Virus genome (UHGV): UHGV-0079576
Strand: one strand, 5' to 3'
Length of the DNA stretch: 25,233 nucleotides
Source: a virus
The notes under the pieces were generated by a model. That model did not search any database, was not told where the DNA came from, and saw only the letters and a list, made by a program, of their open reading frames with translations. A program made the position numbers and the translations under genes. Shown here one piece after another: positions 3,310 to 23,600 of the stretch. Each line of letters begins with the position of its first letter. Positions within the stretch are counted from its first letter, which is position 1.

Positions 3310-3858
3310 GTGAAGGTTAACAAAAAGAAACTGGCGGAGATTTTTGAGTGCGATGTCAGAACAATCACTGGCTGGCAAAGTCAGGGGCTGAGAGTTTTGT
3401 CGGGGGGAGGCAAAGGTATCGAGGCCATGTTCAATACTGCAGAAGCCATTGAGTGGTATGCGCAGCGGGAAAAAGATATCGAAAACGAAAAGCTCCGCAA
3501 AGAACTGGAAGATTTGCGTGCGGCTGCAGAATCAGATTTACAACCCGGCACCATTGACTATGAACGCTACCGGCTAACCAAAGCACAGGCTGACGCACAG
3601 GAGCTGAAAAATGCCCGTGAAGAAGGGCTGGTGCTGGAAACGGAATTGTTTACCTTCATTCTGCAACGTGTGGCACAGGAGATTTCGGGGATACTTGTAC
3701 GTGTGCCGCTGACATTACAGCGTAAATATCCGGATATTTCACCGTCACACCTTGATGTGGTGAAAACTGAAATCGCGAAAGCCTCCAATGTTGCAGCTAA
3801 AGCCGGTGAAAACGTGGGCAGGTGGATTGATGATTTCAGACGCACAGAAGGCAGCTAA
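3310..3858 (+). CDS. nu1: Terminase small subunit (lambda Nu1-like)
   Basis: GTG start at 3310; N-terminus [26 protein letters not shown] parallels lambda Nu1 MEVNKKQLADIFGASIRTIQNWQEQG (helix-turn-helix); sits just downstream of cosB. Confidence 0.85.
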
Positions 3859-5746
3859 TGCAGCCGGTGCGATAGCCACAGGGCTTTTATCTCTCAATAT
3901 TCCGGTTCCACTGACGACGGTTCAGTGGGCTGATCAACATTATTATCTGCCGAAAGAATCTTCATACACTCCCGGACAATGGGAAACCCTGCCGTTTCAG
4001 GTTGCCATTATGAACAGCATGGGAAATGACCGGATCCGCACCGTTAATCTGATTAAATCGGCGCGCGTTGGTTACACCAAAATGCTGTTGGGGGTGGAGG
4101 CTTATTTTATTGAGCATAAATCCCGTAACAGTCTGCTTTTTCAGCCAACAGATTCTGCGGCAGAAGATTTCATGAAATCTCATGTTGAGCCAACGATCAG
4201 GGATGTCCCTGCATTGCTGGAGCTGGCTCCATGGTTCGGAAGAAAACATCGTGATAATACACTCACCCTGAAGCGTTTTTCCTCCGGTGTGGGTTTCTGG
4301 TGCCTGGGTGGTGCCGCTGCTAAAAACTACCGTGAAAAATCTGTGGATGTGGTCTGCTATGACGAACTCTCCTCGTTTGAACCGGATGTGGAAAAAGAAG
4401 GTTCGCCGACGCTGCTTGGTGATAAACGCATCGAAGGTTCGGTATGGCCTAAATCCATACGCGGCTCAACGCCAAAAATCAAAGGTTCCTGTCAGATTGA
4501 GAAAGCCGCGAATGAATCTGCGCATTTCATGCGGTTTTATGTCCCTTGCCCTCATTGCGGGGAGGCCCAGTATCTGAAGTTTGGCGATGATGCGACGCCG
4601 TCTGGCCTGAAATGGGAGAAGGGTAAACCGGAAACGGTGTATTACCTGTGTGAACATAATGGCTGTGTGATCCGGCAGTCGGAACTTGACCAGACCGACG
4701 GACGCTGGATTTGTGACAATACCGGGATGTGGACGCGTGATGGCCTGACATTTTACAGCGCCGGTGATGAGGAGATGCCGCCACCGCGCTCAATCTCGTA
4801 CCACATCTGGACGGCGTACAGTCCGTTCACCACCTGGGTGCAGATTGTCTACGACTGGCTGGATGCGCTGAAGGATCCAAACGGTGTTAAGACGTTTATT
4901 AACACCACGCTCGGGGAGCCCTATGAAGAGGCCGTGGCAGAAAAACTGAGCTTTGAGTTGTTGCTGGAAAAAGTCTGCCACTATGGCGCGCAGGTTCCCC
5001 TGCGGGTGGTTTACCTGACCGCCGGGATCGACTCCCAGAAAGATCGCTATGAAATTTATGTCTGGGGCTGGGCTCCCGGCGAAGAAGCCTTTCTGATTGA
5101 TAAGCAAATTATCATGGGGCGACCGGAAGACGAGGACACCCTTAAACGTGTTGATACGGTGATCCGGAAAAAATATCGTCATGCTGACGGTACTGAAATT
5201 TCCATTTCCCGTGTCTGCTGGGATACCGGTGGTATCGACCAGGACATTGTGTATCAGCGTTCCAGGAAACACGGCACTTTTTTTGTGCTTCCCATAAAAG
5301 GGGCATCGGTGTACGGCAAGCCGGTGATCACCATGCCCAAAAAGCGCAACCAGCGTGGTGTGTTTTTGTGTGAGGTGGGCTCCGATACCGTCAAGGAAAT
5401 GCTGTACGCCCGTTTTGCCCTGCCGGTGGTTTCTGCCAGTGAAGCCGCCCCGTATACCTTCCGTTTTCCGGATAACCCCGACATTTTTTCGGAAGAAGAG
5501 GCGCGTCAGATCGTGGCGGAAGAGCTGGTGGAGAAGGTGGTTAATGGCAGGGTGAAACTGCTGTGGGATAAAAAAGGGCGACGCAACGAAGCCCTCGACT
5601 GCCTGGTATATGCCTATGCTGCCCTGCGTATTTCAGTTCAGCGGTGGCAGCTGGATCTTGAAGCACTGGCCCGTGCCAGAAGAGATGAGCAGGACGACGA
5701 TGAGATGAGTCTGGAAGAAATCGCGGCTGCACTGAGTGGAGGATAA
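3830..5746 (+). CDS. A: Terminase large subunit (lambda gpA-like)
   Basis: Strong collinear similarity to lambda gpA (…[27 protein letters not shown]…[14 protein letters not shown]…[13 protein letters not shown]…WDTGGID…); start chosen at ATG 3830 (GGTGG upstream) inside the Nu1 3' end; track ORF begins at 3788. Confidence 0.95.
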
Positions 5747-5749: not shown

Positions 5750-5959
5750 ATGGTTTATACGCATGAAATGCTTTGTGATGCCCGCCGGGCATTACATGAA
5801 CTGATGATCGGACGTGCTGTGGTTTCCGTCAGTAAGGACGGGCGTCAGGTTCAGTATTCGCGGGCGACGATTGGTGAACTACGCCAGTATATTGAAGAGC
5901 TGGAAAGTGCGCTGGGCGTATCCGGACGGCGTCGTGGCCCGGCAGGAGTGGGGCTGTGA
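5750..5959 (+). CDS. W: Head-tail joining / head completion protein (lambda gpW-like)
   Basis: 69 aa; ARRALHELMIGRAVVSVSKDGRQVQYSRATIGELRQYIEELE…RRRGPAG parallels lambda W. Confidence 0.85.
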   Translation: MVYTHEMLCDARRALHELMIGRAVVSVSKDGRQVQYSRATIGELRQYIEELESALGVSGRRRGPAGVGL

Positions 5960-7527
5960 ATGGGGAACTGGTGGATCTTCACGGGCAGCCATTGCGGCAG
6001 AGTATGGGATATTCCGGAGGGGGTACCGGATTTGGCGGGCAGCTTGCGGAATGGTTGCCTGCACCGGAAAGTGCCGACGTGGCGCTCTTACCTTCCATTC
6101 AGCTGGGTAACGCCCGTGCGGATGATCTGGTCCGTAACAACGGTATTGCCGCAAATGCAGTGGAAATTCATAAAGACCATATCGTCGGGCACATGTTTCG
6201 CCTGAGCTACCGGCCCAACTGGCGCTGGCTGGGGATGTCGGAAGCTGATTCGCATGCCTTTATTGAAGATGTGGAGGCGGCGTGGATGGAATATTGCGAT
6301 CCTGTGTTTGGTTCGATGGATGTGGAGGGGCGTCGCTCGTTTACCGAATTTATTCGTGAAGGGGTGGGCGTTCATACGTTTAACGGTGAAATTTTTGTCC
6401 AGCCCGTATGGGATACGGAATCCACGTCATTATTCCGGACGAAATTCAAAACCATCAGCCCGAAACGTGTAAGCACACCCGGTTATGGTACCGGCGATCG
6501 TTTTATGCGTGCCGGGGTGGAAATCAACCGGTACGGAAAAGCACTGGCCTACCATGTTCAGGAAGATGACTGGCCCGGTTACGGTGTCAGCAACTGGACG
6601 CGGATTGCGGCGACGCTGCCCTCCGGGCGACCGGGAATGATCCATGTGTTTCAGCCGCAGGAGGACGGGCAGACGCGCGGGGCCAACCAGTTTTATTCTG
6701 TCATGGAGCGTCTCAAGATGCTCGACACACTGCAGGCCACGCAACTGCAGTCGGCGGTGGTGCGGGCGATGTATGCCGCGACGATTGAATCCACGCTGGA
6801 TTCGGAAAAAGCATTTGAATATATCGCCGGGGTGGGAGATGGCGGTAAAAACCCCCTGAACACCATCATGAAAGGCTACGCGCGTTATTACGCCACCAAT
6901 ACGGTAAAGCTGGGCGGGGTCCGTATTCCGCATCTTTATCCGGGGGATTCACTGAATCTGCAGACAGCGCAGAATGCAGATAATGGTTTCTCTGAACTGG
7001 AAAAGGCGCTGTTACGTTACATCGCTGCCGGACTGGGGGTGTCCTATGAACAGCTTTCCCGTGATTATTCACAGGTCAGTTATTCCAGTGCCAGGGCATC
7101 CGCCAATGAGTCGTGGCGGTATTTTATGGGCAAACGAAAATTTGTGGCCAGCCGGCTGGCATCACAGATGTTTGCTTGCTGGCTGGAGGAAGCTCTTATT
7201 CGCGGTGTGATCCGCCCGCCGAAATCCCGTTTTTCATTCTGGGAGGCCCGTTCCGGATGGTGTCGTGCCGAGTGGATTGGTGCCGGTCGCATGGCGATTG
7301 ATGGCCTTAAGGAAGTGCAGGAATCGGTGATGCGTATTGAAGGTGGTTTAAGCACATACGAGAAGGAGTTGGCCCTGATGGGCGATGACTATCAGGAAAT
7401 ATTCCGCCAGCAACTGCGTGAAAGCCAGGAGCGACAGGCAGCGGGTCTTCCCCGCCCCATCTGGATAAAGGACACGTTTCAGCAGCAGATCCGACAGACA
7501 ACGGGAGAAAAAGGTGATGCGTCGTAA
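5956..7527 (+). CDS. B: Portal protein (lambda gpB-like)
   Basis: 523 aa; GTG start overlapping the W stop; position and size as lambda B between W and C. Confidence 0.85.
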   Translation: MNGELVDLHGQPLRQSMGYSGGGTGFGGQLAEWLPAPESADVALLPSIQLGNARADDLVRNNGIAANAVEIHKDHIVGHMFRLSYRPNWRWLGMSEADSHAFIEDVEAAWMEYCDPVFGSMDVEGRRSFTEFIREGVGVHTFNGEIFVQPVWDTESTSLFRTKFKTISPKRVSTPGYGTGDRFMRAGVEINRYGKALAYHVQEDDWPGYGVSNWTRIAATLPSGRPGMIHVFQPQEDGQTRGANQFYSVMERLKMLDTLQATQLQSAVVRAMYAATIESTLDSEKAFEYIAGVGDGGKNPLNTIMKGYARYYATNTVKLGGVRIPHLYPGDSLNLQTAQNADNGFSELEKALLRYIAAGLGVSYEQLSRDYSQVSYSSARASANESWRYFMGKRKFVASRLASQMFACWLEEALIRGVIRPPKSRFSFWEARSGWCRAEWIGAGRMAIDGLKEVQESVMRIEGGLSTYEKELALMGDDYQEIFRQQLRESQERQAAGLPRPIWIKDTFQQQIRQTTGEKGDAS

Positions 7528-9133
7528 TTTATCGCATATTGCCGCCATGGCATTTAATGAGCCGCTTTTACTGGAACCCGCCTATGCGCGGGTTTTCTTT
7601 TGCGCGCTGGGTAAAGAGATGGGGGCCGGCAGCCTTGCCGTTCCTCAGCAGGCTGTTCAGCTTGATGCTGATGGTATGCAACTGGCGGTGACTGACTATA
7701 TGGCGGGCGGTCAGCGTCCGGCAAAGAGTTACCAGGTGAAGAATGGCATCGCCATTCTGCCGGTGAGCGGCACGCTGGTGCATAAACTGGGTACCCTGCG
7801 GCCTTACTCCGGCATGACTGGCTATGACGGCCTGACGGCCCGCCTTCAGATGGCGGTGAATGATCCGGATGTGCGCGGCATTTTGCTGGATATCGACAGC
7901 CCGGGCGGTCAGGCTGCCGGGGCGTTTGACTGTGCTGACATGATTTACCGCCTGCGGGAACAGAAGCCCGTGTGGGCGCTGTGTAATGACATGGCCTGTT
8001 CAGCCGCCATGTTGCTGGCGGCAGCCTGTACGCGTCGGCTGGTCACGCAGACGGCAAAAATTGGTTCGATTGGTGTGATGATGGCGCACACCAGTTACGA
8101 GAAACAACTGGCACAGGAAGGGGTGGATATCACGCTGATTTACGCCGGGCAGCACAAGGTTGACGGCAACAGTATTCAGGCATTGCCGGCAGGTGTGCGT
8201 GCAGATTTTCAGCGCCGTATTGATGAGGCCCGCCGGATGTTTGTCGACAAAGTGGCGCTTTATACGGGGCTGAGTTCAGAGGCGGTGATGAATACCGAGG
8301 CTGCCGTTTATGACGGTCAGGCAGGCATTGATGCAGGCCTGGCTGATCAACTGATTAATGCTGCAGATGCCGTTGAAGTGATGGTTTCTGCACTGAATGA
8401 CTCTGTTACGAAGGAGAATGCAATGACTGTTAAAAATCTCACCGTTGCTGAAGCGGTGGCCCAGGAAAATCAGCGCGTGATGGGGATCCTGAATTGTCAG
8501 GAGGCGAAAGGGCGCGAGCAACTGGCGCAAATGCTGGCAGGTCAACCTGGAATGACGGTTGAGCAGGCGAAAACGTTGCTGGCTGCTGCGCCGGTTGCCG
8601 GTACTGACAGCACGGGTGATCAGATTATGACGCTGCCGGAAGCAAAGGGGCGTGAGCAACTGGCGCAGATGCTGGCAGGTCAACCGGGGATGACGGTGGC
8701 GCAGGCGAAAGCGTTTCTGGCGGCAGCCCCTGCAGCCGGTGCTGCAGGCACAGGCGATCAGATTATGGCGTTACCAGAAGCAAAAGGGCGTGAACAACTC
8801 GCGCAGGCGCTGGCTGAACAGCCGGGAATGACCGTTGACCAGGCCAAAACGTTACTGGCGGCGGCACCGGTTGCGGGTTCTGCAAGTGTCGGCGAGCAGA
8901 TTATGGCGCTGCCGGAGGCGAAAGGGCGCGAACAACTTGCACAGGCACTGACAGAACAGCCAGGAATGACGGTGGCGCAGGCGAAAACGCTGCTGGCAGC
9001 CGCGCCGGCGGCATCGCAACCGTCACAGGAAACACTTTTTGATCGCTTTATGGCACAGCATGCTGCCAGTGCGGTTTCCGGTGGCGGAACGGCCGGGCGC
9101 GGGGAGGAAGACCTGCTGATGAGTATGCCGTAA
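7517..9133 (+). CDS. C: Prohead protease / minor capsid protein C (S49 peptidase family) with a C-terminal repeat-containing scaffold-like domain
   Basis: ATG at 7517 (GTG at 7514); N-terminal two-thirds is ClpP/S49-like; C-terminal third carries four 46-aa repeats; position as lambda C. Confidence 0.8.
   Translation: MRRNLSHIAAMAFNEPLLLEPAYARVFFCALGKEMGAGSLAVPQQAVQLDADGMQLAVTDYMAGGQRPAKSYQVKNGIAILPVSGTLVHKLGTLRPYSGMTGYDGLTARLQMAVNDPDVRGILLDIDSPGGQAAGAFDCADMIYRLREQKPVWALCNDMACSAAMLLAAACTRRLVTQTAKIGSIGVMMAHTSYEKQLAQEGVDITLIYAGQHKVDGNSIQALPAGVRADFQRRIDEARRMFVDKVALYTGLSSEAVMNTEAAVYDGQAGIDAGLADQLINAADAVEVMVSALNDSVTKENAMTVKNLTVAEAVAQENQRVMGILNCQEAKGREQLAQMLAGQPGMTVEQAKTLLAAAPVAGTDSTGDQIMTLPEAKGREQLAQMLAGQPGMTVAQAKAFLAAAPAAGAAGTGDQIMALPEAKGREQLAQALAEQPGMTVDQAKTLLAAAPVAGSASVGEQIMALPEAKGREQLAQALTEQPGMTVAQAKTLLAAAPAASQPSQETLFDRFMAQHAASAVSGGGTAGRGEEDLLMSMP
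8423..9133 (+). CDS. Nested in-frame scaffold protein (lambda Nu3-like) initiated inside the C gene
   Basis: In-frame ATG at 8423 preceded by AAGGAG (8411-8416); would give a 236-aa product covering the repeat array; analogous to the lambda C/Nu3 in-frame overlap. Confidence 0.4.
   Translation: MTVKNLTVAEAVAQENQRVMGILNCQEAKGREQLAQMLAGQPGMTVEQAKTLLAAAPVAGTDSTGDQIMTLPEAKGREQLAQMLAGQPGMTVAQAKAFLAAAPAAGAAGTGDQIMALPEAKGREQLAQALAEQPGMTVDQAKTLLAAAPVAGSASVGEQIMALPEAKGREQLAQALTEQPGMTVAQAKTLLAAAPAASQPSQETLFDRFMAQHAASAVSGGGTAGRGEEDLLMSMP
8501..9010 (+). repeat. In-frame tandem repeat array, about 3.7 copies of 138 bp (46 aa: EAKGREQLAQ(M/A)LA(G/E)QPGMTV.QAK..LAAAP.AG…QIM.LP)
   Basis: Units begin at 8501, 8639, 8777 and 8915 with high nucleotide identity. 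Confidence 0.85.
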
Positions 9134-9171: not shown

Positions 9172-9507
9172 ATGATTAAAACCACCACGGAAAAGCGTGC
9201 GGATGTGTACATTTTTGCCGGAAACGATCCGGCGCATACCGCAAAAGCCACCAGTGGTATCAGTGTCGCCATGCCTGCACTGACGCCACTGATGCTGGAT
9301 GACGCCACCGGTAAACTGGTGGCATGGGATGGTCAGAAAGCCGGAACGGCAGTGGGCGTGCTGGCTCTGGCACTTACCGGAACAGAACCCACGCTGACGT
9401 ACTACAAAAGCGGTACGTTTGCCACTGAGTCGCTGGTCTGGCCTGACTCAGTGGATGCGGTGAAAAAAGCCAACGCATTTGTGGGAAGTGCCATCAGCCA
9501 CGCCTGA
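9172..9507 (+). CDS. D: Head decoration protein (lambda gpD-like)
   Basis: 111 aa; …DPAHTAKATSGISVAMPALTPLMLDDATGKLVAWDG…YYKSGTF… parallels lambda D; AGGAG upstream. Confidence 0.9.
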   Translation: MIKTTTEKRADVYIFAGNDPAHTAKATSGISVAMPALTPLMLDDATGKLVAWDGQKAGTAVGVLALALTGTEPTLTYYKSGTFATESLVWPDSVDAVKKANAFVGSAISHA

Positions 9508-9575: not shown

Positions 9576-10604
9576 ATGGGGTTATTTACCACGCGTCAGT
9601 TACTCGGGTACACCGAGCAGAAAGTGAAGTTTCGTGCGCTGTTTCTGGAGCTGTTCTTTCGTCGCACGATCACTTTCCATACTCAGGAAGTCATGCTGGA
9701 TAAAATTACCGGCAAAACACCGGTTGCGGCGTATGTGTCTCCGGTGGTGTCAGGCAAAGTGCTGCGCAGCCGTGGTGGTGAAACCCGTGTGTTATGTCCC
9801 GGTTATGTAAAACCAAAACACCGCTTTGATTATCAGCAGGCAGTGGAACGTCTTCCGGGAGAAGATCCGGCCCGCCTTAATGACCCGGCTTACCGCCGTC
9901 TGCGTATTCTGACGGACAACCTGAAACAGGAAGAGCAGGCGATTGTGCAGGTGGAAGAAATGCAGGCGGTCAGTGCCGTGTTGCAGGGTAAATACACCAT
10001 GAGCGGCGAGCAGTTTGAGACGGTGGAAGTGGATTTTGGGCGTTCTGTCGCCAATAACATTACGCAGGCTGGCGGACGCGAATGGTCGCAGCAGAATGCT
10101 GACACCTTCGATCCGACGCATGATCTGGATGCGTACTGCGATTTTGCTTCCGGCACCATCAATATCGCGATTATGGACGGCACGGTCTGGCGTATGCTGA
10201 ACGGTTTTAAACTGTTCCGTGAAAAACTGGATACACGCCGTGGCTCCAAATCTGAGCTGGAAACGGCACTGAAAGATCTGGGTTCCGTGGTTTCCTTTAA
10301 GGGCTGGTACGGCGATCTGGCTGTCGTGGTGGCGAAGACAACGTATGTTGACGAAAACGGGGATGAACAGCGTTATCTGCCTGAAGGTACACTGATTCTG
10401 GGAAATACCCAGGCGGAAGGCGTCCGTTGCTATGGTGCCATTCAGGATAATCAGGCGCTGAGTGAAGGGATCACCTCTGCTATTCGTTATCCGAAACACT
10501 GGGAGGAAGTGGGTGATCCTGGTTGTGAATATACCATGACGCAGTCTGCACCTTTGATGGTGCTGCCGGATCCGGATGCGTTTGTGGTGGTTCAGGTGAA
10601 ATAA
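9576..10604 (+). CDS. E: Major capsid protein (lambda gpE-like)
   Basis: 342 aa; collinear with lambda E (…VSPVVSGKVLRSRGGE…PGYVKPKH…DPAYRR…QVEEMQAVSAVLQGKYTMSGE…TRRGSKSELETALKDLG…TMTQSAPLMVLPDPDAFVVVQ). Confidence 0.95.
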   Translation: MGLFTTRQLLGYTEQKVKFRALFLELFFRRTITFHTQEVMLDKITGKTPVAAYVSPVVSGKVLRSRGGETRVLCPGYVKPKHRFDYQQAVERLPGEDPARLNDPAYRRLRILTDNLKQEEQAIVQVEEMQAVSAVLQGKYTMSGEQFETVEVDFGRSVANNITQAGGREWSQQNADTFDPTHDLDAYCDFASGTINIAIMDGTVWRMLNGFKLFREKLDTRRGSKSELETALKDLGSVVSFKGWYGDLAVVVAKTTYVDENGDEQRYLPEGTLILGNTQAEGVRCYGAIQDNQALSEGITSAIRYPKHWEEVGDPGCEYTMTQSAPLMVLPDPDAFVVVQVK

Positions 10605-10635: not shown

Positions 10636-10654
10636 AGCGCACGGGAGAGATGTG

Positions 10655-11020
10655 ATGACAAAAGAGCAGATGACGGAACGCCTTCAGGAGCTGGCAGTGA
10701 TTCTGGGGCGTGAAGCAGATATTTCAGGTTCAAAAGCCGATCTTGAACAGCGCCTGGCGGAATGGGAAGAGGAGGCCGCTGGATTTGATGTGGGGGATAC
10801 AGGGGCGGAAGAGGTGGACAACAACGTATCCGGCGATGGGATGCATTCTGAGCGGGGACTCGTTCGGGTGCGCATGCTGAAAACGGCACATATGCCAGCC
10901 TGTGATGCAGCGACAGGAAAGATGTTGATGTTCGCCCGGGCCTCCAGTGTTGTGCTGGTTAATGAAGCTGCCGTTCCTGCATTACTGGCGGACGGTCTGG
11001 CAGAAAAAATCCGGGAGTGA
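10655..11020 (+). CDS. DNA-packaging / head accessory protein (lambda FI-like)
   Basis: ATG at 10655 (GTG 10652); N-terminus MTKEQMTERLQELAVILGRE… parallels lambda FI MTKDELIARLRSLGEQLNRD…; position after E. Confidence 0.55.
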   Translation: MTKEQMTERLQELAVILGREADISGSKADLEQRLAEWEEEAAGFDVGDTGAEEVDNNVSGDGMHSERGLVRVRMLKTAHMPACDAATGKMLMFARASSVVLVNEAAVPALLADGLAEKIRE

Positions 11021-11424
11021 TGATGTTCGATAATCTGTTCGATCAGGCCATGAGTGATGCGGATGACATCATCCTGGATACGATGGGGACGGAAATCAGC
11101 ATATATCCTGGCGGCACGGAAAGAAAAATCCGTGCCGTTTTCGATGCCCCGGCAGATAACACCGGGATGAACACTGGCAGCGGCGAAATTCGTGATACTG
11201 CGCCTGTGTTATTTACCCGGAGTGCATGGGCCGCCGGTCTGAAAAAATATGACAGGGTCATGATCCACGGCGAACCCTACCAGGTAGTCGATCCCGGCTG
11301 GGATGAGTCAGGCACTGCGGGTCAGGGTGTGATTACCATCACCCTCGCGCGGGGAGAGCCGGGGAGAAATACACCTTCCGCGCCGGAACGACCGAGTAAA
11401 CGTTATGGCAGTCAGAGAGCATGA
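11020..11424 (+). CDS. FII: Head-tail joining protein (lambda FII-like)
   Basis: N-terminus MMFDNLFDQAMSDADDII… parallels lambda FII MADFDNLFDAAIARADETI…; start overlaps the FI stop. Confidence 0.7.
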   Translation: MMFDNLFDQAMSDADDIILDTMGTEISIYPGGTERKIRAVFDAPADNTGMNTGSGEIRDTAPVLFTRSAWAAGLKKYDRVMIHGEPYQVVDPGWDESGTAGQGVITITLARGEPGRNTPSAPERPSKRYGSQRA

Positions 11425-12127
11425 ACGAAGCAGTGCCCGGCAGCGACGGCTGGCACGAAACCTCGTCGTCGATATTGATGAAGATGAGGTGCTGAAAATT
11501 ATCGCTAAACTGGGCGGTTCAAAAAGCCAGATCCGTAAAGCCTGGGGCGTGGCACTGAAAAGAGCTTCGTCTGCACTGCGGATGAAGGCTATGGCAGAGT
11601 TTAAAAAACAGGTTGCCCCACGCAGTCAGAAAATGATCAAAAAGCGTGTTCTGCATAATTTTGTCATTCGTCGTAACGGTGATGAGTTTGATGAGGCGAA
11701 GGTGTGGTTTGGTCTGAATGCCATCAAAGTACGTGATCTGCGCGGACGCATAAGTGGGGGACGACGCGGCGAACGTCATCAGTTGCGCGATGAGCGGGGA
11801 CGTTTTGCACCAGCTTCCCACCGCAGGAAGGCGCGGGAGATCCGTTTTAAACCTTCCGGGGAATCCCTGCCTGTCACCACCTGGTCAACGGATGATGCCT
11901 TCATCAACCAGTTCGAAACGGAAAATCGTAACGGACGTATATCAAAAAGGAAAACGATACTGGTCCGACAGGCATCCGGACGACGGAGGGTGCGTGAAGC
12001 GGAAATTGATATTTATGAAGCCATGCTGAACCGTATAGAGGATTTTGTTTTTCCGGATGCGGAAGCACTGATCCTGAAAAATTTTGAGCATGAACTGAAA
12101 TTCCGGGTATTTAAGGGGCTGGAGTGA
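11405..12127 (+). CDS. Putative neck / tail-completion protein (lambda Z-like by position and weak similarity)
   Basis: 240 aa, basic, overlaps the FII 3' end; weak resemblance to lambda Z in mid-region and C-terminus; assignment tentative. Confidence 0.4.
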   Translation: MAVREHERSSARQRRLARNLVVDIDEDEVLKIIAKLGGSKSQIRKAWGVALKRASSALRMKAMAEFKKQVAPRSQKMIKKRVLHNFVIRRNGDEFDEAKVWFGLNAIKVRDLRGRISGGRRGERHQLRDERGRFAPASHRRKAREIRFKPSGESLPVTTWSTDDAFINQFETENRNGRISKRKTILVRQASGRRRVREAEIDIYEAMLNRIEDFVFPDAEALILKNFEHELKFRVFKGLE

Positions 12128-12690
12128 TGGAGCCATTGATGATGGGAGCCTGGCATCAGGCGGTGATTGACAGTCTGAAACAAATTCCCTGGGTGGAAGA
12201 TGCCGATGAATACCCGGAAAAAGTGACGCAACTGGTGACGCCTGCCGTGTTTGTGGATGTACCTGGCTGGGACAAGACTCAGTTTGCCGACGGGCAGACG
12301 CGGGTCACGTTGAAATGTGATCTGTTTGTGGTGACAGACCGGGCCGGAAAGACGGAAAACGTGCCAAAACCGCAGATTTTTGCCCGTTGCCTGGCGATGG
12401 ATTTGTCTGACTGGATTGAGGGGGCCACGTTCGGGCTGGATAACGTTGATCCGGCTGTTTTTATTGATGCAGAGGTGGATACCTTCGACCGGCTTCTGGA
12501 TGACTACATCGTTTTCCGTGTTTCTTTCGAACAGGATATTCCTGTCGGGGAAGATCCGTTCGCGGTTCCGGCAGGTGCGCCATTACAGGAAGTCTGGCTG
12601 GGGAAAGTTCCGGAAACTGGCAAGAGACATGAGCGGGATTATCGTCTTATCTGGAAAACCGAGGGCACTGGCAATGAGTCTGGCGGATGA
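12127..12690 (+). CDS. Putative tail terminator / tail completion protein (lambda U-like fold by weak similarity)
   Basis: ATG at 12127 overlapping the upstream stop (TGATG); pattern WHQAVIDSLKQ…TPAVFVDVPGW…RVTLKCDLFVV…DYIVFRVSF resembles the lambda U layout. Confidence 0.4.
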   Translation: MEPLMMGAWHQAVIDSLKQIPWVEDADEYPEKVTQLVTPAVFVDVPGWDKTQFADGQTRVTLKCDLFVVTDRAGKTENVPKPQIFARCLAMDLSDWIEGATFGLDNVDPAVFIDAEVDTFDRLLDDYIVFRVSFEQDIPVGEDPFAVPAGAPLQEVWLGKVPETGKRHERDYRLIWKTEGTGNESGG

Positions 12691-13297
12691 AGTGGCAGAG
12701 TTACGCCGCAGGGTGGCGGATATGGTGCGGCGTGGGGTGGTGGAGGAAGTGATACCGGGTAGTCCGGTGATGGTTCGGGTGGATATCGGGGATGTGCTTT
12801 CGCCGCCGTTACCCTGGATTCAGGTGCAGTCCGGGCGCTACATGCAGGTCAGTAATTATCCGGCTCCCGGCGATGCCGTTACGGTGATATCGGAGGCGGG
12901 CGATCTGCGTAACGGTCGGGTGTATCCGGGGGCCAATATTGACGCTATCCCTGTCCCTGAGGGCAGTAAATACGAACATGTTATTTTGTTTGATACCGGA
13001 ACGGAAATCCGTTACGACCGTAAGGCTAATGCCCTGTCCATCACGCTGGCTGAAGGCGGTAGCTATAAAATTACCGGCAAGGGAACCCTGGACGGTCCGG
13101 TAGAAATCACAGACACCCTGACCGTACAGGGTAAAGCAACCATGAATACTGAAGCGGTAATTAAGGCGGATCTGACGGTCGGTGGTGAGGTTTCTGATCA
13201 TTACGGAACGATGAGTCAAATCCGGCTTGTCTATAACGGTCACAATCACCGGGGCGACAGTGGTGGCAGCACCGGACAGCCTGGTCAGCAAATGTAA
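12674..13297 (+). CDS. V: Baseplate spike / central hub protein (P2 gpV-like)
   Basis: ATG at 12674 inside the upstream gene's 3' end; N-terminus MSLADEVAELRRRVADMVRRGVVEEV and C-terminal HNHRGDSGGSTGQP parallel P2 V (…HTHKHPGDSGGTTGSP); the track's 12380 start is rejected. Confidence 0.75.
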   Translation: MSLADEVAELRRRVADMVRRGVVEEVIPGSPVMVRVDIGDVLSPPLPWIQVQSGRYMQVSNYPAPGDAVTVISEAGDLRNGRVYPGANIDAIPVPEGSKYEHVILFDTGTEIRYDRKANALSITLAEGGSYKITGKGTLDGPVEITDTLTVQGKATMNTEAVIKADLTVGGEVSDHYGTMSQIRLVYNGHNHRGDSGGSTGQPGQQM

Positions 13298-13330
13298 TCT
13301 CCTTTTCAGTTTTTTTCCGGAATAAACAAC

Positions 13331-13687
13331 ATGATTGGTATTGATTCAGCCACCGGCAGATATCTGCACGGTAACGAACATCTGCGCCAGTCCGTCACCG
13401 ATATTTTGTCAACGCCGGTCGGCAGCCGGGTCCTGCTCAGGGAATACGGCAGCAGACTGTTCAGTCTGCTTGATAACCCACAGGATGATTTCACGCGGGT
13501 GAGAATTGTCCGTGAAACGGCAACCGCCCTTGAACGCTGGGAACCCCGCCTGACCCTCCGGCGGGTGGAGGTGACGTGGACAGGAGCAGGGAGCGCCTGG
13601 CTGACGCTTGTCGGGGTGAACAACGAAACTCAGGACATGATTCGACTCGAGGAGATAAAAATTGGCAATGTCTCAGGCAATCATTGA
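13331..13687 (+). CDS. W: Baseplate wedge protein (P2 gpW / gp25-like)
   Basis: 118 aa; …SVTDILSTPVGSRVLLREYGSRLFSLLDNPQ…LERWEPRLTL… parallels P2 W. Confidence 0.8.
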   Translation: MIGIDSATGRYLHGNEHLRQSVTDILSTPVGSRVLLREYGSRLFSLLDNPQDDFTRVRIVRETATALERWEPRLTLRRVEVTWTGAGSAWLTLVGVNNETQDMIRLEEIKIGNVSGNH

Positions 13688-14576
13688 TCTGTCCGCGATA
13701 CCGGTACCGGATGCTGTGGAAGTGCCGGATACCGCAATGCTCGTCTCTCAGATAGTGGCGAAGTATCAGGAGGTGGATACGTTGTTTTCAGCACTGGTGG
13801 AATCTGATCCTGCTTATAAATGGGCGGAGGCACTGGCTTTTCGGGTGGCGCTGATGCGCCAGCAAATAAATGATGCAGTTCGTGCAGTACTGCTTGCCAG
13901 TGCCGGTGGGAACGATCTGGATCAGGTTGGCGCGAATTATCAGGTACAGCGGCTGGTAATTACCCCTGCAGACGACAGCACCATTCCGCCCACGCCGGCG
14001 GTGTATGAAGATGATGACGCCTTTCGCGAACGCATTCAGTTGTCATGGGCACGGCTCAGCACCGCTGGCGCGAAAAATGCGTACCACTATTTTGCACAAA
14101 GTGCTGATCCTGATGTGCTGGATGTGAAAGCCTACGGGCCGGAAACGCATTCGCAGGAAGGGCGGGTTTTTCTTTATGTGTTATCCCGGTCAGGAAATGG
14201 CACCGCATCACAACCCCTGCTGGATAAGGTGGCAGCATCAGTCAGTGATGATGAAACCCGTCCCCTGACGGATTTTGTCAGTGTCCGGGCGGCAGAAATT
14301 ATTCCCTACGACGTGGTGGCGAATATTCATATTCCCTACGGACTGGATGGTGAACTGGTAATGGCAAATGCCCGTAAGGCGCTGCAGTCTTACACTGACA
14401 GTGTCCACAGGATTGGTTCAGTGGCATCCCGTTCCGGCATGGATGGTGCACTGCACCAGACCGGGGTGATTACGGTGAATCTGACCTCTCCTGCCAGTGA
14501 TATCGTTCCTGCGATGGGGCAGGCACCGTGGTGCCGTAAGGTAACACTGAACAAGGTGGAGACAACCGATGAATGA
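13668..14576 (+). CDS. J: Baseplate assembly protein (P2 gpJ-like)
   Basis: Collinear with P2 J (AIIDLSAIPVPDAV…LLASAGGNDLDQVGANYQVQRLVITPADDSTIPPTPAV…); ATG at 13668 (track start is TTG 13662). Confidence 0.9.
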   Translation: MSQAIIDLSAIPVPDAVEVPDTAMLVSQIVAKYQEVDTLFSALVESDPAYKWAEALAFRVALMRQQINDAVRAVLLASAGGNDLDQVGANYQVQRLVITPADDSTIPPTPAVYEDDDAFRERIQLSWARLSTAGAKNAYHYFAQSADPDVLDVKAYGPETHSQEGRVFLYVLSRSGNGTASQPLLDKVAASVSDDETRPLTDFVSVRAAEIIPYDVVANIHIPYGLDGELVMANARKALQSYTDSVHRIGSVASRSGMDGALHQTGVITVNLTSPASDIVPAMGQAPWCRKVTLNKVETTDE

Positions 14577-16992: not shown

Positions 16993-18381
16993 ATGCCATC
17001 AGGACTGACGTTAACAATACAAGGAGCAGCCGAAATTGAATCGGCTTATCAGACTGGTCAGGTGGTTACGATCACTCATGTACTGACGGGGGATGGTGGC
17101 GGTAAAACGTTACCATCAACACCTGATGAGATGGCTTCAATGTCGGCATTGTTGGGGCAATTTGGTCAGGAAGTGTTTTCTGAAGGTAAGGTTGAGCAGG
17201 GATTTATCAGTGGTGACATTGTCATTGACTGTAAAAAATATCCCGGAAGAACCTTGCGTGAGCTGGGAATGGTTAGCAGCAGCGGTACGCTGATTGCTTA
17301 TGGTCGTTATCCCGACACGTATTTACCGGCGCAGACTGATTCTGTTATCAAAGAAGTTATACTGACAATGGTTCTGGCGCTTACCCACACCCAGAATGTG
17401 ACGCTGGAGATTGATCCTGAAAGGGCCATTATTACCCAGGAAACAGGTGACAGGCGTTATCTGCAACGAAAAAACAATCTTTCAGATGTGGAAGACAATG
17501 ACGAAGCAATTGATAACCTCGGATTAAAACCCACGGTAGACAAGGCAAAAAATGCCGTTCAGCGTGATGGTGACACCATGAGCGGGGAACTGAAAATCCA
17601 TGGTGTGAATGCGCTGAGGATTTTCAACGAAGCTTTTGGTCTGATTTTTCGTCGTTCGGAAGAGTGCCTGCACCTTATCCCTACCAGTGAAGGTCAGGGT
17701 GAAAATGGCGATATTGGCCCCCTGCGTCCGTTCACCATAAATTTGCGGACGGGTGAGATATCCATGTCGCACAAAGTGTCTGTTGGCGGTGGTTCTCAGG
17801 TGAATGGTGCATTGGGTATCGGCGTTCTGAACGCACTGGGCGGTAACTCAATTGCTCTCGGAGATAACGATACAGGTATAAAACAAAACGGCGACGGCAT
17901 TCTGGATGTTTATGCGAATGGACAGCATGTATTTCGTTTTCAGAATGGGGTGGCAATAGCGTTAAAAAATATTCAGGCCGGAAATGCCAGGAAATTTACG
18001 CTATCCAGCACTAACGAATCTGCGAAAAATGCAACGTTTAATTTATGGGGGCATTCATCCAGACCCGTAGTTGTTGAACTTGGTGATGATTCAGGCTGGC
18101 ATTTTTACAGCCAGAGGAATACAGATAACAGCATCACGTTCGCTGTAAACGGACAGGTAGTGCCATCAAATTATGGAAACTTTGATGCCCGTTACCAGAT
18201 GAAAACAGGGATCGTACAGGATGTGCGACTGGGGAGTGCGGTTGGGATTGGGCGTGGAGGGAATGCACCATCAGGCCATTTGCTGAGCGGTGTTGATGGT
18301 GGCGAAAGCGTGGACTGGGCGAATGCCCGCCCGGTGCAGGTTCTGATTAATGGCGTCTGGCGGAATGTAGCGAGTTTGTAA
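16993..18381 (+). CDS. H: Tail fibre protein (P2 gpH-like N-terminal domain, divergent C-terminal receptor-binding part)
   Basis: 462 aa; AAGGAG RBS; N-terminus …VTITHVLTGDGGGKTLPSTPD…RELGMVSSSGTLIAYGRYP… parallels P2 H (…ITTMAVGDGGGK…RELGLYDDAGTLIAVANMA…). Confidence 0.75.
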   Translation: MPSGLTLTIQGAAEIESAYQTGQVVTITHVLTGDGGGKTLPSTPDEMASMSALLGQFGQEVFSEGKVEQGFISGDIVIDCKKYPGRTLRELGMVSSSGTLIAYGRYPDTYLPAQTDSVIKEVILTMVLALTHTQNVTLEIDPERAIITQETGDRRYLQRKNNLSDVEDNDEAIDNLGLKPTVDKAKNAVQRDGDTMSGELKIHGVNALRIFNEAFGLIFRRSEECLHLIPTSEGQGENGDIGPLRPFTINLRTGEISMSHKVSVGGGSQVNGALGIGVLNALGGNSIALGDNDTGIKQNGDGILDVYANGQHVFRFQNGVAIALKNIQAGNARKFTLSSTNESAKNATFNLWGHSSRPVVVELGDDSGWHFYSQRNTDNSITFAVNGQVVPSNYGNFDARYQMKTGIVQDVRLGSAVGIGRGGNAPSGHLLSGVDGGESVDWANARPVQVLINGVWRNVASL

Positions 18382-18383
18382 TT

Positions 18384-18929
18384 ATGATGCATTTAAAAAA
18401 TATTTCTGTTCAGAACCCTAAAACGATTGAGCAATACCAACTGGCACGACAGCATAAATTTTTATTGTGGCTGTTCTCAGAGGATGGTCAGGAATGGCAC
18501 GAAGCTCAGGAAAAATTTCAGCCAGACACACTCAAAGTGATTTATGTCAAAACGGGAGAAGTCGTCTGGGTCGGGAAAAATATCACATCGGTTTGCCCGG
18601 AAAATAAAAGCGTAATTGAACTGCCGGACATTACCGCGAATCGTCGTATTGCAGCGTCAGGCTACTGGTTTTACCGCAATGATGAATTTGTTTTCGACTA
18701 CAAATTAAAAGCAGAAGACGAACGCGATGCTCTGTTAAAGCAGGTCAGTATCGTGACCAGCGAGTGGGAAAAAGACCTGCAACTTGGGTTAATCAGCGAC
18801 GAAGATAAAGAAAAGCTGAAGGCGTACCGTATTTACGCAAAGAAATTGCAGATGATGGATTTCAGCAATATTTCGGATAAGGCCACTTACAACAATATCG
18901 TCTGGCCTGAGCCACCACAAAATATCTGA
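18384..18929 (+). CDS. Tail fibre assembly protein (Tfa-type chaperone)
   Basis: 181 aa immediately after the fibre gene; C-terminal …YNNIVWPEPPQNI motif typical of Tfa; low GC. Confidence 0.75.
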   Translation: MMHLKNISVQNPKTIEQYQLARQHKFLLWLFSEDGQEWHEAQEKFQPDTLKVIYVKTGEVVWVGKNITSVCPENKSVIELPDITANRRIAASGYWFYRNDEFVFDYKLKAEDERDALLKQVSIVTSEWEKDLQLGLISDEDKEKLKAYRIYAKKLQMMDFSNISDKATYNNIVWPEPPQNI

Positions 18930-18984: not shown

Positions 18985-20460
18985 ATGTCCGGATTACATG
19001 GTGTTGAAACCATTGAACTGACGACAGGCACGGTTGCCGTGCAGACCATCTCCACGGCTGTAATTGGCCTGGTGGGGACCGCGCCGGACGCCTCCGGTGG
19101 TGTGTGTGCTTCCGGTACAGCCGGTTCGTGGCTGCTGGGAACGGCGCTGGATTTTACGGCGAAACAGGAAGGTAGGGCTGGCAATAATATTTCGGTTGTT
19201 GCTGTCGCTGCCACAAAGCAAAGCGCGCAGACAGCGGCTTCGCTGGAAGGTTCGACCCTGATGATAACGCTGGGTACGGATGAACGCAGCCAGGTTAACA
19301 CCACGGTGGCTTGTGTGATTGAGGTGGTGAATGCACTGGGTGATTCGCCAGTGACAGTGGCGGTCAGTCCACTGAATGCAGAGGGTGCAGAAAATAATGT
19401 GGTGTCGCCGTTCAGTCTGACCTTATCCGGCGGAGAGGATGAGGCGTTTCCGGTTAATACACCGGTGGTGGTGGCGGGGGCGTTAACTCAGGCCGGGAAA
19501 CTGGGCGCAGCCGGGACATTATATCCGGCCCTGCGTGATATTTTTGACCAGACAGGTGCGCTGGTGATTGTGGTGCGTGCGGAAAGCAAAACGAAGGCAA
19601 AGGAAGCAGAACAGCGCGCGGCAGTCATTCGGGCAATGGAAGCCCTGATGGAAAGCAAAGGAAAAACGGGCTACCAGCCGCGCATTCTTATCGCTACTGG
19701 TTACAGTGAGGATGATGGCGTGGCAAAGGCGCTGGAAACGTACGCAGCGAAGTTACGGGCCGTGGCCTATATAGACTCCCCCTCAATGGCAACGCCGCAG
19801 GATGTGGTTCAGCGACGTGCGTCCTTTGGCGGGCGTGTGGAGCTGCTGCGTCCGCGCGTGTCAGTGATGGATGACAGCGGGCAGACGGTATTTCGTCCGT
19901 ATTCAGCACGAGCTGCAGGGCTACGTGCCCGTATTGATTACGAAAAAGGATGGTGGTGGTCCAAGTCAAACCAGGACGTGATGAATATCACTGGACTGGA
20001 GCAGGTTGACACATTTATTCTCGGAGAGCAGAACTGCACAGTAAACCTGCTGAACATGGAAAATATCTCCACCATTATTCGCCACGACGGTTTTAAACAC
20101 TGGGGGAACCGTCTGTGCTCATCCCACAGTCAGTGGCGTTTTGAGCCGGTACGCCGTACAGCAGATGTGATTGAAGACAGCATTCAGGAGGCCATGCTGC
20201 CTTATGTCGATCGGCCGCTTGATCGGGATGTGGCAGAAGACATTCTTGGCAGTATTAATGCCTATATGCGCCAGCTTAAAAATCTGGGCGCGATCCACGG
20301 AGGCAGTGCCTGGCTGAATGATGAACTGAATACAGCAGAAACCCTGGCGGCAGGGCAGTTGTATATTGATTATGACTTTGGGCCGAAGTCACCACTGGAG
20401 CGTCTGACACTGCGGGCGATGATTAACAATAAACTGGCGCTGGAGGAGCTGACAGTATGA
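18985..20460 (+). CDS. FI: Tail sheath protein (P2 FI-like)
   Basis: ATG at 18985 with GGGAG 6 nt upstream, downstream of the terminator; collinear with P2 FI (MSGLHGVETIEL…AVIGLVGTA…RARIDYEKGWW…TIIRHDGFKHWGNR…AGQLYIDYDFGPKSPLERLTLR); track start 18937 lies upstream of the terminator. Confidence 0.95.
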   Translation: MSGLHGVETIELTTGTVAVQTISTAVIGLVGTAPDASGGVCASGTAGSWLLGTALDFTAKQEGRAGNNISVVAVAATKQSAQTAASLEGSTLMITLGTDERSQVNTTVACVIEVVNALGDSPVTVAVSPLNAEGAENNVVSPFSLTLSGGEDEAFPVNTPVVVAGALTQAGKLGAAGTLYPALRDIFDQTGALVIVVRAESKTKAKEAEQRAAVIRAMEALMESKGKTGYQPRILIATGYSEDDGVAKALETYAAKLRAVAYIDSPSMATPQDVVQRRASFGGRVELLRPRVSVMDDSGQTVFRPYSARAAGLRARIDYEKGWWWSKSNQDVMNITGLEQVDTFILGEQNCTVNLLNMENISTIIRHDGFKHWGNRLCSSHSQWRFEPVRRTADVIEDSIQEAMLPYVDRPLDRDVAEDILGSINAYMRQLKNLGAIHGGSAWLNDELNTAETLAAGQLYIDYDFGPKSPLERLTLRAMINNKLALEELTV

Positions 20461-20975
20461 TTACGGGTGAAAAAAAACTGTTGCGCGCGTGGGCGTTATT
20501 TCTTCCTGGCGGGATCCGTCTTCAGGGGGCACATGAATACACGCCGCCTGCCATTAATATCACGACAGTGGATATCAAAACCGGCGCAATGGATGCACCG
20601 GTAGCAGTGGATGATGGCATGGAAGCACTGACCTGCTCATTTAAAATTTATGGCTACGATGTTGCCATGCTGACTCTGCTGGGGTTGCAGGCTGGACTTT
20701 ATTCACCGGAGATCGTTGTTCGTCAGGCTTACCGGGTGGGGAATGCGACCAGCGGACAGGTGGAAACCCTGCAGGGGATGATCACCAGTATCACCCCGGA
20801 TGCGCGCCCGGCAACATCACAGGCTGAGGCTTCGGTGACGGTGGAAATGTCACTGAGTTATTACCGTCAGGCTGTCGACGGTCTGGAAACCATCTGCATT
20901 ATTCCGGAGGAATTTGTGCGTCGTATTAACGGCGTTAATGTTCTGTCGGATCTGAAAAAAATTATCCGGGTTTAA
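20457..20975 (+). CDS. FII: Tail tube protein (P2 FII / Mu-type tube family)
   Basis: 172 aa directly after the sheath gene (ATGA overlap); size and position as a myophage tube. Confidence 0.8.
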   Translation: MITGEKKLLRAWALFLPGGIRLQGAHEYTPPAINITTVDIKTGAMDAPVAVDDGMEALTCSFKIYGYDVAMLTLLGLQAGLYSPEIVVRQAYRVGNATSGQVETLQGMITSITPDARPATSQAEASVTVEMSLSYYRQAVDGLETICIIPEEFVRRINGVNVLSDLKKIIRV

Positions 20976-21036: not shown

Positions 21037-21339
21037 ATGTCGGAAAAAAACAGTGTTCCCGCCAGCAGTGTGGAAATTGTGTTATCCGTGCCGTATGTCA
21101 CCGCATCAGGACAGACGATCACGCATGTCACCATGCGTGCGCCTACCGTCCGCGATCGTCTGTTGCATCGCCGGAGTACCAAACCGGAAGCAGAGGCTGA
21201 TCTGGATATGATTGCCGGTCTGTGCGGGATGGACGCGGCGGACATGATGAACATGGAAGCGTGTGATTACCTGACCCTGGAGCGGCAGTTCAATGTTTTT
21301 TTGCTGCCGCCGGTCCGGCGGAAGAAGAAAGCATCCTGA
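21037..21339 (+). CDS. E: Tail assembly chaperone (P2 gpE-like), zero-frame product
   Basis: 100 aa; AAGGAG RBS; position between tube and tape measure; contains slippery heptamer near its 3' end. Confidence 0.7.
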   Translation: MSEKNSVPASSVEIVLSVPYVTASGQTITHVTMRAPTVRDRLLHRRSTKPEAEADLDMIAGLCGMDAADMMNMEACDYLTLERQFNVFLLPPVRRKKKAS

Positions 21340-21476
21340 CGGCGATACGGCGCGCCGGTGCCTGGTTCGGGTGGTCTCCGGGAGATGTGATGGCGCTGCC
21401 GTATACGGATTTTGTGGCAATGATGCTGGCGGAGTCGGAAGAGAGGAAGCGATGTTATGGCAACGGTGGGCGATAA
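21037..21476 (+). CDS. E': Frameshift-extended chaperone (P2 E+E'-like) by programmed -1 frameshift at T-TTT-TTG (21297-21303)
   Basis: Heptamer T TTT TTG in the E frame; the -1 frame is open from 21303 to stop TAA 21474-21476, overlapping the tape-measure start; GC-rich palindrome ccgccgg/ccggcgg (21307-21321) begins 4 nt downstream. Confidence 0.55.
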
Positions 21477-23109: not shown

Positions 23110-23111
23110 AC

Positions 23112-23600
23112 ATGGTGGATTTACTGGGCTGGGGCGTAAACCGGCTTGAGCGTGAAGCATGGGACGCGGTGGGCTCATTAACGGATGTCGCCTCCCGCGT
23201 CATGCTGTCGTTTGGTGAGTTTGAATTCAGTATTGATACGGCAGCCTATAACGCCATGAAGCGCACTATGGAATGGCGATGGGATGAACAGCAACTTATC
23301 GGAAAAAACGACCTGCTGCAGTATACCGGTAAGGGGGCCAGAACAATAACCCTTGAAGGTATGGTGCATGCGGGATTTCGTGACGGTGTGGGAATGGATG
23401 CCCTTGATACACTGGTTCAGATGGTGGATGACAATCCGGCTCCGCATCTTCTGGTTTCGAGCACAGGTGATGTGATGGGGTATTTTGTGGCAACTGCCTA
23501 TTCAGATAACACCACGTCCTTTCTTCCCGGCGGTGCGCCGAAGAACAAAACGTTCACACTGGAGCTGAAATACTATGGCGAAAAACTGGCGGACCACTGA
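23112..23600 (+). CDS. U: Tail protein (P2 gpU-like)
   Basis: ATG at 23112 (GTG 23106 overlaps the tape-measure stop); size and position as P2 U between T and X/D. Confidence 0.75.
   Translation: MVDLLGWGVNRLEREAWDAVGSLTDVASRVMLSFGEFEFSIDTAAYNAMKRTMEWRWDEQQLIGKNDLLQYTGKGARTITLEGMVHAGFRDGVGMDALDTLVQMVDDNPAPHLLVSSTGDVMGYFVATAYSDNTTSFLPGGAPKNKTFTLELKYYGEKLADH

Follow-up and report, generated by a model that had tools for sequence, protein, structure and literature searches.

The window analysed here, which is the whole 25,233 nucleotide (nt) stretch of the viral genome UHGV-0079576, is a prophage of Escherichia coli, 98.9-99.3% identical at the nucleotide level to a prophage adjoining potB/pepT in E. 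coli M8. All of its structural genes lie on the + strand, and scans with Pfam and PHROG profiles place them in the order Nu1-A-W-B-C-D-E-FI-FII, followed by a gpZ-like gene and a tail terminator gene, and then V-W-J-I-fibre-G-sheath-tube-E/E'-T-U-X-D (Table 1). As each of these assignments has its own independent profile match, the gene content and order are far beyond chance. A previous reading, made from the letters of the DNA and its open reading frames (ORFs) and referred to below as the sequence-only reading, had described a phage lambda-type head and neck module running directly into a P2-type contractile tail; the genes that it named were all found, intact, on the + strand and in the order it gave. 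The region around this joint (10600-13700) is present in 82 of 5426 complete E. coli genomes, on the chromosome in every case. A megablast search of a phage collection with the whole window found no phage spanning the joint; the matches were to phage 21 and lambda in the head genes, and to phiP27-like phages in the lysis genes.

The 25 structural ORFs of the window are all intact and show the overlaps of translational coupling, the slippery site of E/E' is retained, and lysis and terminase genes are present. This makes it unlikely that the element is decaying or domesticated, for instance as a tailocin with leftover head genes rather than a functional hybrid phage, although its terminator belongs to the same family as the R2 pyocin collar, one copy (that of E. 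coli M8) carries IS66 insertions, and some related GenBank records are only around 20 kb long. Also arguing against decay, 27 of the 38 loci recovered from IMG/VR are near-identical to the window across both the head and the tail halves, on contigs of up to about 40-68 kb, and the isolated phages yong2, Chris1, Valp1 and HM795 have the same layout.

Table 1. Features of the prophage late region, with positions in the window and the matches on which each assignment is based (aa, amino acid identity)
Feature	Position	Strand	Evidence
Nu1 small terminase subunit	3310..3858	+	Pfam Phage_Nu1 3e-85; 88% aa to phage 21
gpA large terminase subunit	3830..5746	+	Pfam GpA_ATPase, GpA_nuclease; 82% aa to phage 21, 65% to lambda
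gpW head-tail adaptor	5750..5959	+	Pfam gpW 4e-25; 47% aa to phage 21
gpB portal, lambda family	6004..7527	+	Pfam Phage_portal_2 2e-95; 74% aa to phage 21
gpC S49 prohead protease/scaffold	7517..9133	+	Pfam Peptidase_S49; 61% aa to phage 21
gpD head decoration protein	9172..9507	+	Pfam HDPD 9e-22; 74% aa to phage 21
gpE major capsid protein	9576..10604	+	Pfam Phage_cap_E 3e-64; 82% aa to phage 21
FI DNA-packaging chaperone	10655..11020	+	Pfam Packaging_FI 2e-14; 42% aa to phage 21
FII head-closure (stopper) protein	11020..11424	+	Pfam Phage_attach 6e-13; PHROG 82 'Hc1' 8e-30
Crossover zone of the head-cassette exchange, 3' end of FII	11341..11390	+	blastn and in-register alignment against L012
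gpZ-type tail completion protein (Ne1/TCP), 240 aa (predicted)	11405..12127	+	PHROG 27 'tail completion or Neck1 protein', 5.4e-28
Tail terminator/collar, gpU fold with C-terminal extension, 183 aa (predicted)	12139..12690	+	Family profile and Foldseek
Baseplate spike/assembly protein V	12674..13297	+	PHROG 9992 2e-24; Pfam Phage_base_V below cut-off
Baseplate W (gp25-like), 13331-13687; J, 13662-14576	13331..14576	+	Pfam GPW_gp25, Baseplate_J; 40-41% aa to P2
gpI fused to Big_2 and BspA-type LRR extension, 803 aa	14569..16980	+	Pfam Tail_P2_I 1e-33, LRR_5 2e-9
Tail fibre, 16993-18381; fibre assembly protein G, 18384-18929	16993..18929	+	Pfam Phage_tail_fib, Caudo_TAP; 51% and 36% aa to P2 H and G
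Tail sheath, 18985-20460; tail tube, 20457-20975	18985..20975	+	Pfam Phage_sheath_1/1C, Phage_tube
Tail chaperone E, with candidate -1 frameshift product E'	21037..21476	+	Pfam Phage_TAC_7; slippery run, open -1 frame
Tape measure T, 21457-23109; U, 23106-23600; X, 23575-23793; D hub, 23784-24884	21457..24884	+	Pfam Phage_P2_GpU, Phage_tail_X, Phage_GPD

Two neck proteins between FII and V

Both genes lying between FII and V are labelled 'hypothetical' in RefSeq. The first, encoding a 240-aa protein, overlaps FII (Hc1) by 20 nt and is followed by the terminator gene. While the protein itself has no Pfam match at E<=1, three of seven aligned relatives match the Pfam family Minor_tail_Z (PF06763), the best with an E value of 4.7e-12, and hhalign matches the alignment of the family to lambda gpZ (E=4.5e-4 over 148 columns) and to none of lambda U and P2 R, S and L. 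Judged by these profiles, it is probably a divergent lambda gpZ-type tail completion protein. The gpZ-type fold consists of two long helices lying side by side and a small beta-sheet (PMC11784142, PMC11661146); the AlphaFold model of the 240-aa protein, with a predicted local distance difference test score (pLDDT) of 71, has long terminal helices and a beta region. A search of the PDB with the single sequence gave no match, and the model had no convincing solved relative, as expected given that lambda gpZ is absent from the PDB and that the only solved protein of this type, from phage 80-alpha, is much shorter (PMC11661146). The 80-alpha protein sits inside the neck, on the N-termini of the tape measure and the DNA end (PMC11661146), a position that fits the co-inheritance of the Z-like gene with the tail described below.

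The second gene starts at 12139 in the RefSeq annotation, which gives a protein of 183 aa; a GTG codon at 12124 would extend this to 188 aa, the form in which it was originally listed. The protein falls into PHROG 1072 ('unknown function'), has no Pfam match of its own, and as a single sequence finds only a weak match in the PDB (E=0.11). A profile of 14 family members, by comparison, matches the R2 pyocin 'Collar PA0615' (PDB 6u5f) with E=4.1e-20 over residues 4-172 of 183. The AlphaFold2 model (pLDDT 73) has 35 Foldseek matches at E<=1e-3, nearly all of which are neck or terminator chains of phages and tail-like particles: the pyocin collar (6u5j/6u5f) ranks first and the Mu terminator (9khy) next, followed by lambda gpU (3fz2/3fzb/8iyd), T5 p142, the gene transfer agent terminator and T4 gp15, with chains including 8bcp and 6tba. 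Structural alignment of the model with the pyocin collar gives around 21% identity. From profile and model, the 183-aa protein is thus assigned as a tail terminator with a gpU fold, of the contractile-tail subtype and some 50 residues longer than gpU. By analogy with the pyocin collar, it would form a hexameric ring capping the tube and sheath, with its C-terminal segment probably contacting the last sheath ring. The family is a large one: at E<=1e-3, it accounts for 353 representative clusters among 1.84 billion library proteins; a search of a one-genome-per-species collection with the single sequence returned no loci.

These results firm up what had been weak calls of a Z-like and a U-like gene, and they bear on the alternative that the sequence-only reading had set beforehand, namely that the neck proteins are P2 gpR/gpS-type completion proteins, in which case everything from 11405 onwards would be a P2 tail module with no lambda-type part. 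R and S do lie immediately upstream of V in P2, with equivalent function and position; moreover, published profile work groups P2 gpS with lambda gpZ in one Ne1 superfamily (PMC4362835), and P2 R is labelled as a tail terminator in RefSeq, so that a very remote common origin is plausible. The signals detected here are nevertheless of lambda type (gpZ family and gpU fold), with nothing pointing to R or S. Alignments of both neck families score E 0.14-0.69 against P2 R, S and L in hhalign, as against the match of the 240-aa family to lambda Z and of its relatives to Minor_tail_Z; no P2-family chain is found among the top 50 Foldseek matches of the terminator model, where pyocin, Mu and lambda are all present; and tblastn against the P2 genome, with the limit raised to E 1, gave no significant match (E 0.053 for the 240-aa and 0.50 for the 188-aa protein). 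We therefore regard a P2 R/S identity as slightly less likely still than decay of the element.

Boundaries of the head cassette and the proposed role of FII

The boundaries between modules were sought through three independent comparisons: with phage 21 and a prophage of E. coli B19374; with phages yong2 and Chris1; and with the 38 IMG/VR loci, which had been recovered with the terminator. The first of these delimits the head. The B19374 prophage combines a head of the phage 21 type with the tail of a lambda-type siphovirus, and its head proteins are 61-87% identical to those of the window except for W (48%), at around 76% nucleotide identity. The protein identities to phage 21 are those of Table 1, and no match to either comparator was found from FII onward. 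At the nucleotide level, identity to phage 21 is 91-96% at 3450-3900 and 60-86% through E, then 64% at 10650-10800, the first 150 nt of FI, and around 35%, equivalent to background, beyond about 10800. Megablast similarity to lambdoid siphovirus prophages ends at the stop codon of E (10604), and in 3849 E. coli genomes none of the matches extends past it. Set against yong2 and Chris1, identity is only 23-25% in the terminase and portal, and rises from 32-34% in FII through 41% in the Z-like protein, 47-52% in the terminator and 52-55% in V to 60-62% in the sheath.

One IMG/VR locus, L012, places a second boundary much more precisely. From 11341 onwards, blastn shows it to be 98.9% identical to the window up to where the locus ends; the Z-like and terminator proteins of the two do not differ at all (100% identity), and its lysis genes are 92% identical at the nucleotide level to 1113-3165; between 3165 and the crossover, however, lies an unrelated head cassette. 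This encodes a DUF1441 small terminase, a gpA-type terminase (25% aa identity), a lambda-family portal (23%), a fusion of a ClpP protease to the capsid protein and a cement protein, followed by an FII that is 41% identical to that of the window. In-register alignment puts the crossover inside the last 27 codons of FII, and the matches to L012 in the 82 E. coli genomes start at the same point. One genome, E. coli A19, itself carries an L012-type head on a window-type tail. In E. coli NY1601 (NZ_CM135959, match H156), an L012-type head, with ClpP-capsid fusion and cement protein, keeps 97% identity as far as the first bases of FII, beyond which it is joined to different sequence; this points to the 5' end of FII as a second recurrent breakpoint.

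None of the three comparisons has a discontinuity at 12674-12690, where the switch from lambda to P2 order had been placed. The 17 nt overlap of the 188-aa ORF with V at that position is real, and the RefSeq annotation of the M8 prophage agrees with it, but the boundary is not a seam; it only marks the onset of BLAST-level similarity to P2 itself (27% for V). By sequence identity the seams are instead at about 10650-10800, inside FI, and at 11341-11390. The mosaicism of head and tail thus stands, close to the interval originally proposed, as does the idea that head and tail are matched to each other in the neck, whilst the exact joint does not. Nor do the proteins encoded at 11405-12690 appear to be the point of adaptation, as they travel with the tail and are unchanged in L012 despite its different head cassette. 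Read in this way, the window prophage has exchanged its head cassette with phage 21-like siphoviruses, and a sister element carries a ClpP-capsid-fusion head on the same tail. Two different head cassettes on a 99% identical tail, with the crossover confined to about 50 nt of FII, amount to a natural experiment on head-tail compatibility.

In lambda, the N-terminal helix of FII seats the gpW barrel, whilst its beta-hairpin and C-terminal loop bind the gpU ring (PMC10721106). These segments were mapped from that work onto an alignment of ten FII proteins. The N-terminal helix of the window protein is 57% identical to that of lambda, compared with 17-22% to L012, yong2 and Chris1; its hairpin is 6-12% identical to those of lambda and phage 21, compared with 35-47% to phages carrying the window-type tail; and its C-terminal loop is 87% identical to that of L012. 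Fisher tests on these identities gave p values of around 0.001-0.004, from segments that are short and sequences that are not independent. On this segment-wise pattern FII reads as the bridging piece: it looks bipartite, with a lambda-type helix facing the head and a hairpin and C-terminal loop facing the tail, and is likely to be the protein that actually adapts the lambda-type gpW/portal to the terminator of the contractile tail. More tentatively, and probably claiming too much, gpFII could be a bipartite plug whose N-terminal helix co-varies with gpW and whose hairpin and basic C-terminal loop co-vary with the terminator, the short and conserved 3' end of its gene at 11341-11390 serving as a recurrent crossover patch through which unrelated head cassettes, of the lambda D/E and ClpP-capsid-fusion types, are swapped on one tail. 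If true, this would be a sequence-level rule for head-tail compatibility that is both testable and engineerable.

Within the head cassette, gpW is an island of divergence: it is 47-50% identical at the protein level to every comparator, phage 21 and lambda included, and 48-53% identical to phage 21 at the nucleotide level, between neighbours at 82% (A) and 74% (B) aa identity. It is also more variable than the neighbouring genes among close relatives (86-100%). The converse is seen in Nu1 and the 5' end of A, where the elevated identity to phage 21 at 3450-3900, relative to the remaining head, suggests a very recent exchange of the segment for cos/terminase specificity. The gpC protein has 538 aa, against around 500 in phage 21, and its scaffold/Nu3 part, at about 8850-9000, aligns poorly, with many indels. 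Upstream of the head, the lysis region (289-3165) comprises a TerB-family gene, two holins, an M15 endolysin and small ORFs; it is 91-93% identical at the nucleotide level to the lysis region of the Stx2e phage phiP27 and 90.7% to an Actinobacillus phage. From these matches, the lysis module has a history separate from those of both the head and the tail.

Among the tail genes, V scores below the cut-off of its Pfam family (E 0.0099; 16.6 bits against 23.8), and its assignment is supported by phrog_9992 and by its identity to P2 gpV. In gpI, the P2 tail protein I domain occupies residues 9-149, and is followed by a C-terminal extension of around 620 aa, which carries leucine-rich repeats of the BspA type in addition to a Big_2 Ig-like domain. 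Most close IMG/VR relatives retain only the first 22% or so of this ORF, the gpI part, at around 90%; the extension hence behaves as a swappable cassette, presumably for receptor binding. The Pfam scan identifies the fibre as a tail-collar fibre and G as a tail fibre assembly protein. In E. coli M8, an IS66-family element (locus L001, 28431-31019) separates the genes for fibre assembly and sheath, and a further IS66-like element lies upstream; the window copy has no insertion at the fibre assembly/sheath site. Other uninterrupted copies are found, for example, in E. coli RSHH22 and in the pig strain cq9. A run of seven T residues (AATGTTTTTTTGC) is found at 21295-21301 inside E, after which the -1 frame (21267-21476) remains open to about 21476, overlapping the start of the tape measure gene at 21457. 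This is a candidate for a programmed E/E' frameshift as in P2. A 72-aa ORF at 21293-21511 was considered as E' and rejected, being in the +1 frame, whereas it is the -1 frame that stays open after the T run; this ORF is probably spurious. Lastly, X lies between U and D, as it does in yong2, Chris1, Valp1 and HM795, whereas in P2 it is next to the head completion gene.

Spread and interpretation of the arrangement

The arrangement is not restricted to E. coli prophages. The genes for gpA, gpW and a lambda-family portal, then FII, the Z-like protein, the terminator, V, W, J and I, and the sheath and tube, are colinear in six phages: Hafnia phage yong2, Citrobacter phage Chris1, Vibrio phage Valp1, Burkholderia phage HM795, E. 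coli phage vB_EcoM-569R10 and Wolbachia phage WO. The terminator gene lies between the Z-like gene and V in all of these, as in the window, and its overlap with V is kept in five of the six. A further 42 loci from Pseudomonas and related bacteria were picked by similarity to PA0615 alone. FII, the Z-like gene and the collar are contiguous in that order, with the terminator again next to V, in 40 of these; a gpA terminase and lambda-family portal are found upstream in 38-39, and W, J, I and the sheath downstream in 39-41. The PA0615 homologues at these loci (L051-L092), at 40-47% aa identity, are in whole prophages rather than tailocin clusters, with a gpA terminase, lambda-family portal, FII and gpZ-like gene upstream of the collar homologue. 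Their occurrence in whole prophages hints at an origin of the pyocin collar, and perhaps of the entire pyocin tail, in a lineage of myoviruses with lambda-family portals rather than in P2-like Peduoviridae.

Earlier work contains traces of the same organisation. A myovirus with a gpW-type adaptor together with Hc1 and Tc1 was already catalogued in the neck classification of 2014 (PMC4362835), and in the literature on WO the genes for head and connector/baseplate are taken together as a single contiguous block (PMC3173496, PMC9203015); searches of the literature for lambda-like heads with P2-like tails, and for yong2, found nothing useful. Phages of the VP882, VHML and HAP-1 type, considered as candidate relatives, were absent from the tblastn matches to either neck protein and were dropped. 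The sequence-only reading had itself named the finding of this arrangement in a well-known phage genus as grounds against a new joint. That is largely what is seen, and the joint is not a new one: the arrangement occurs in many unclassified phages and in WO, rather than in one famous genus. On these comparisons the combination of lambda head and contractile tail is real but already widespread, and the window represents a known hybrid lineage rather than a one-off recombinant.

How the parts might be put together can be proposed by analogy with the solved structures of lambda, 80-alpha and the R2 pyocin, the parts and their homologies being what is observed. DNA-filled heads would be closed by gpW and then by a hexamer of gpFII. 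The tail would be built around the tape measure T, on a baseplate of V, W, J, I, D, U and X, and be capped by a hexamer of the 183-aa terminator, the gpU-like core of which would top the tube, with the C-terminal extension probably on the last sheath ring. The 240-aa gpZ-like protein would complete the lumen of the tail. FII would dock onto the terminator last, making the contact between FII and the terminator the functional interface of lambda and P2 parts, and the element would work as a lambda neck on a pyocin/P2-type tail.

We consider it likely, with a probability of about 85%, that the window represents the late region of a temperate myovirus, present as a prophage in E. coli and coming from a widespread lineage that combines a lambda-type head and connector, a lambda-order neck and a contractile tail of the P2/R-pyocin type. 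Several points weigh against this reading. The prophage, known here from its genes alone, could be defective, and the M8 copy has IS66 among its tail genes. Confidence is low for the last 45 residues of the terminator model, and the FII comparison rests on 17-23 positions per segment, from non-independent sequences in an alignment of around 30% identity; the C-terminus of FII may be conserved just because it falls to the tail side of the crossover, without functional meaning. Least likely is the view that follows from the sequence-only reading, that a recent and unusual recombination at 12674-12690 put a lambda head and neck on a P2 tail and left the neck proteins as newly adapted bridges, since, even though BLAST similarity to P2 itself begins at V, neither neck protein matches P2 or lambda by BLAST and the terminator and V genes overlap, the adjacency of these two genes is kept in six phages of alpha-, beta- and gamma-proteobacteria, mostly with the overlap, in 40 of the 42 Pseudomonas loci FII adjoins the Z-like gene and this the collar gene, upstream of baseplate W, J and I, the closest solved relative of the terminator is a contractile-tail collar, both neck proteins are identical in L012 below a different head, and identity does not break at that point in any comparison.

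What is new in this account of a conserved, widespread lineage is modest: names for two proteins, a mapped head-cassette crossover at the 3' end of FII, and relatives of the pyocin collar in complete prophages. Two 'hypothetical' genes can now be named as encoding a gpZ-type tail completion protein and a PA0615-type tail terminator, and the R2 pyocin collar is linked to a family of complete prophages. The main value is one of clarification, in that the lambda head on a P2 tail is a conserved and phylogenetically broad architecture.

Comparison with known systems

The window shares its gene order with lambda and phage 21 as far as the terminator (Nu1-A-W-B-C-D-E-FI-FII-Z-U), and has gpW, FII, a probable gpZ-family protein and a predicted gpU fold in common with them. 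Its head proteins are 74-88% identical to those of phage 21, apart from W (47%) and C (61%), but FI is diverged (42%), and FII is similar to lambda only, at 33%. The Z-like protein, at 240 aa, is detectable as such by profiles alone, and the terminator, at 183 aa against 131 aa in gpU, is closer to the collars of contractile tails. The non-contractile tail genes V-G-T-H-M-L-K-I-J of lambda, which the B19374 prophage has, were not found in the window, where there is a sheath, tube and baseplate tail instead; because it has no V-G-T-H tail, the element is by gene content not a lambdoid siphovirus.

With P2, it shares the order V-W-J-I-H-G and FI-FII-E/E'-T-U-D and a slippery T-run in E, with protein identities of 27% for V, 40% for W, 41% for J, 51% for H, 36% for G, 37% for the sheath, 22% for the tube, 33% for U, 43% for X and 39% for D. 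The P2 head genes Q, P, O, N, M and L, and R/S, were not detected in the window, X has moved, gpI has its 620-aa Ig/LRR extension, and no separate operons broken up in the P2 style by lysis or non-essential genes were seen. Since it has neither P2 head genes nor an R/S signal, the element is, on the same kind of evidence, not a member of the Peduoviridae. Along its full length and in fold, the terminator family matches PA0615, the collar of the Pseudomonas aeruginosa R2 pyocin, but the pyocin, unlike the window, has no head, FII or gpZ-like gene. The placing of X between U and D is what we take to be the gene order of the R2 pyocin, PA0615-PA0628.

The closest sequenced neck and tail are those of yong2, Chris1 and L012. 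Their heads differ from that of the window: the small terminase is of the DUF1441 type, a cement protein is present, and the major capsid protein is fused to a ClpP protease; in yong2 and Chris1 the block from sheath to D also lies ahead of W-J-I, unlike in the window. WO, Valp1, HM795 and 569R10 resemble the window more completely in composition, with gpA, gpW, a lambda-family portal, gpC, gpD, a gpE-type capsid, FII-like and gpZ-like proteins, the terminator, V, W, J and I, but are only 23-63% identical to it; WO and Valp1 have an extra PAAR gene after V, and the WO tail genes lie apart, elsewhere in the genome. By these shared genes, the window element belongs to a broad and poorly named lineage that includes WO.

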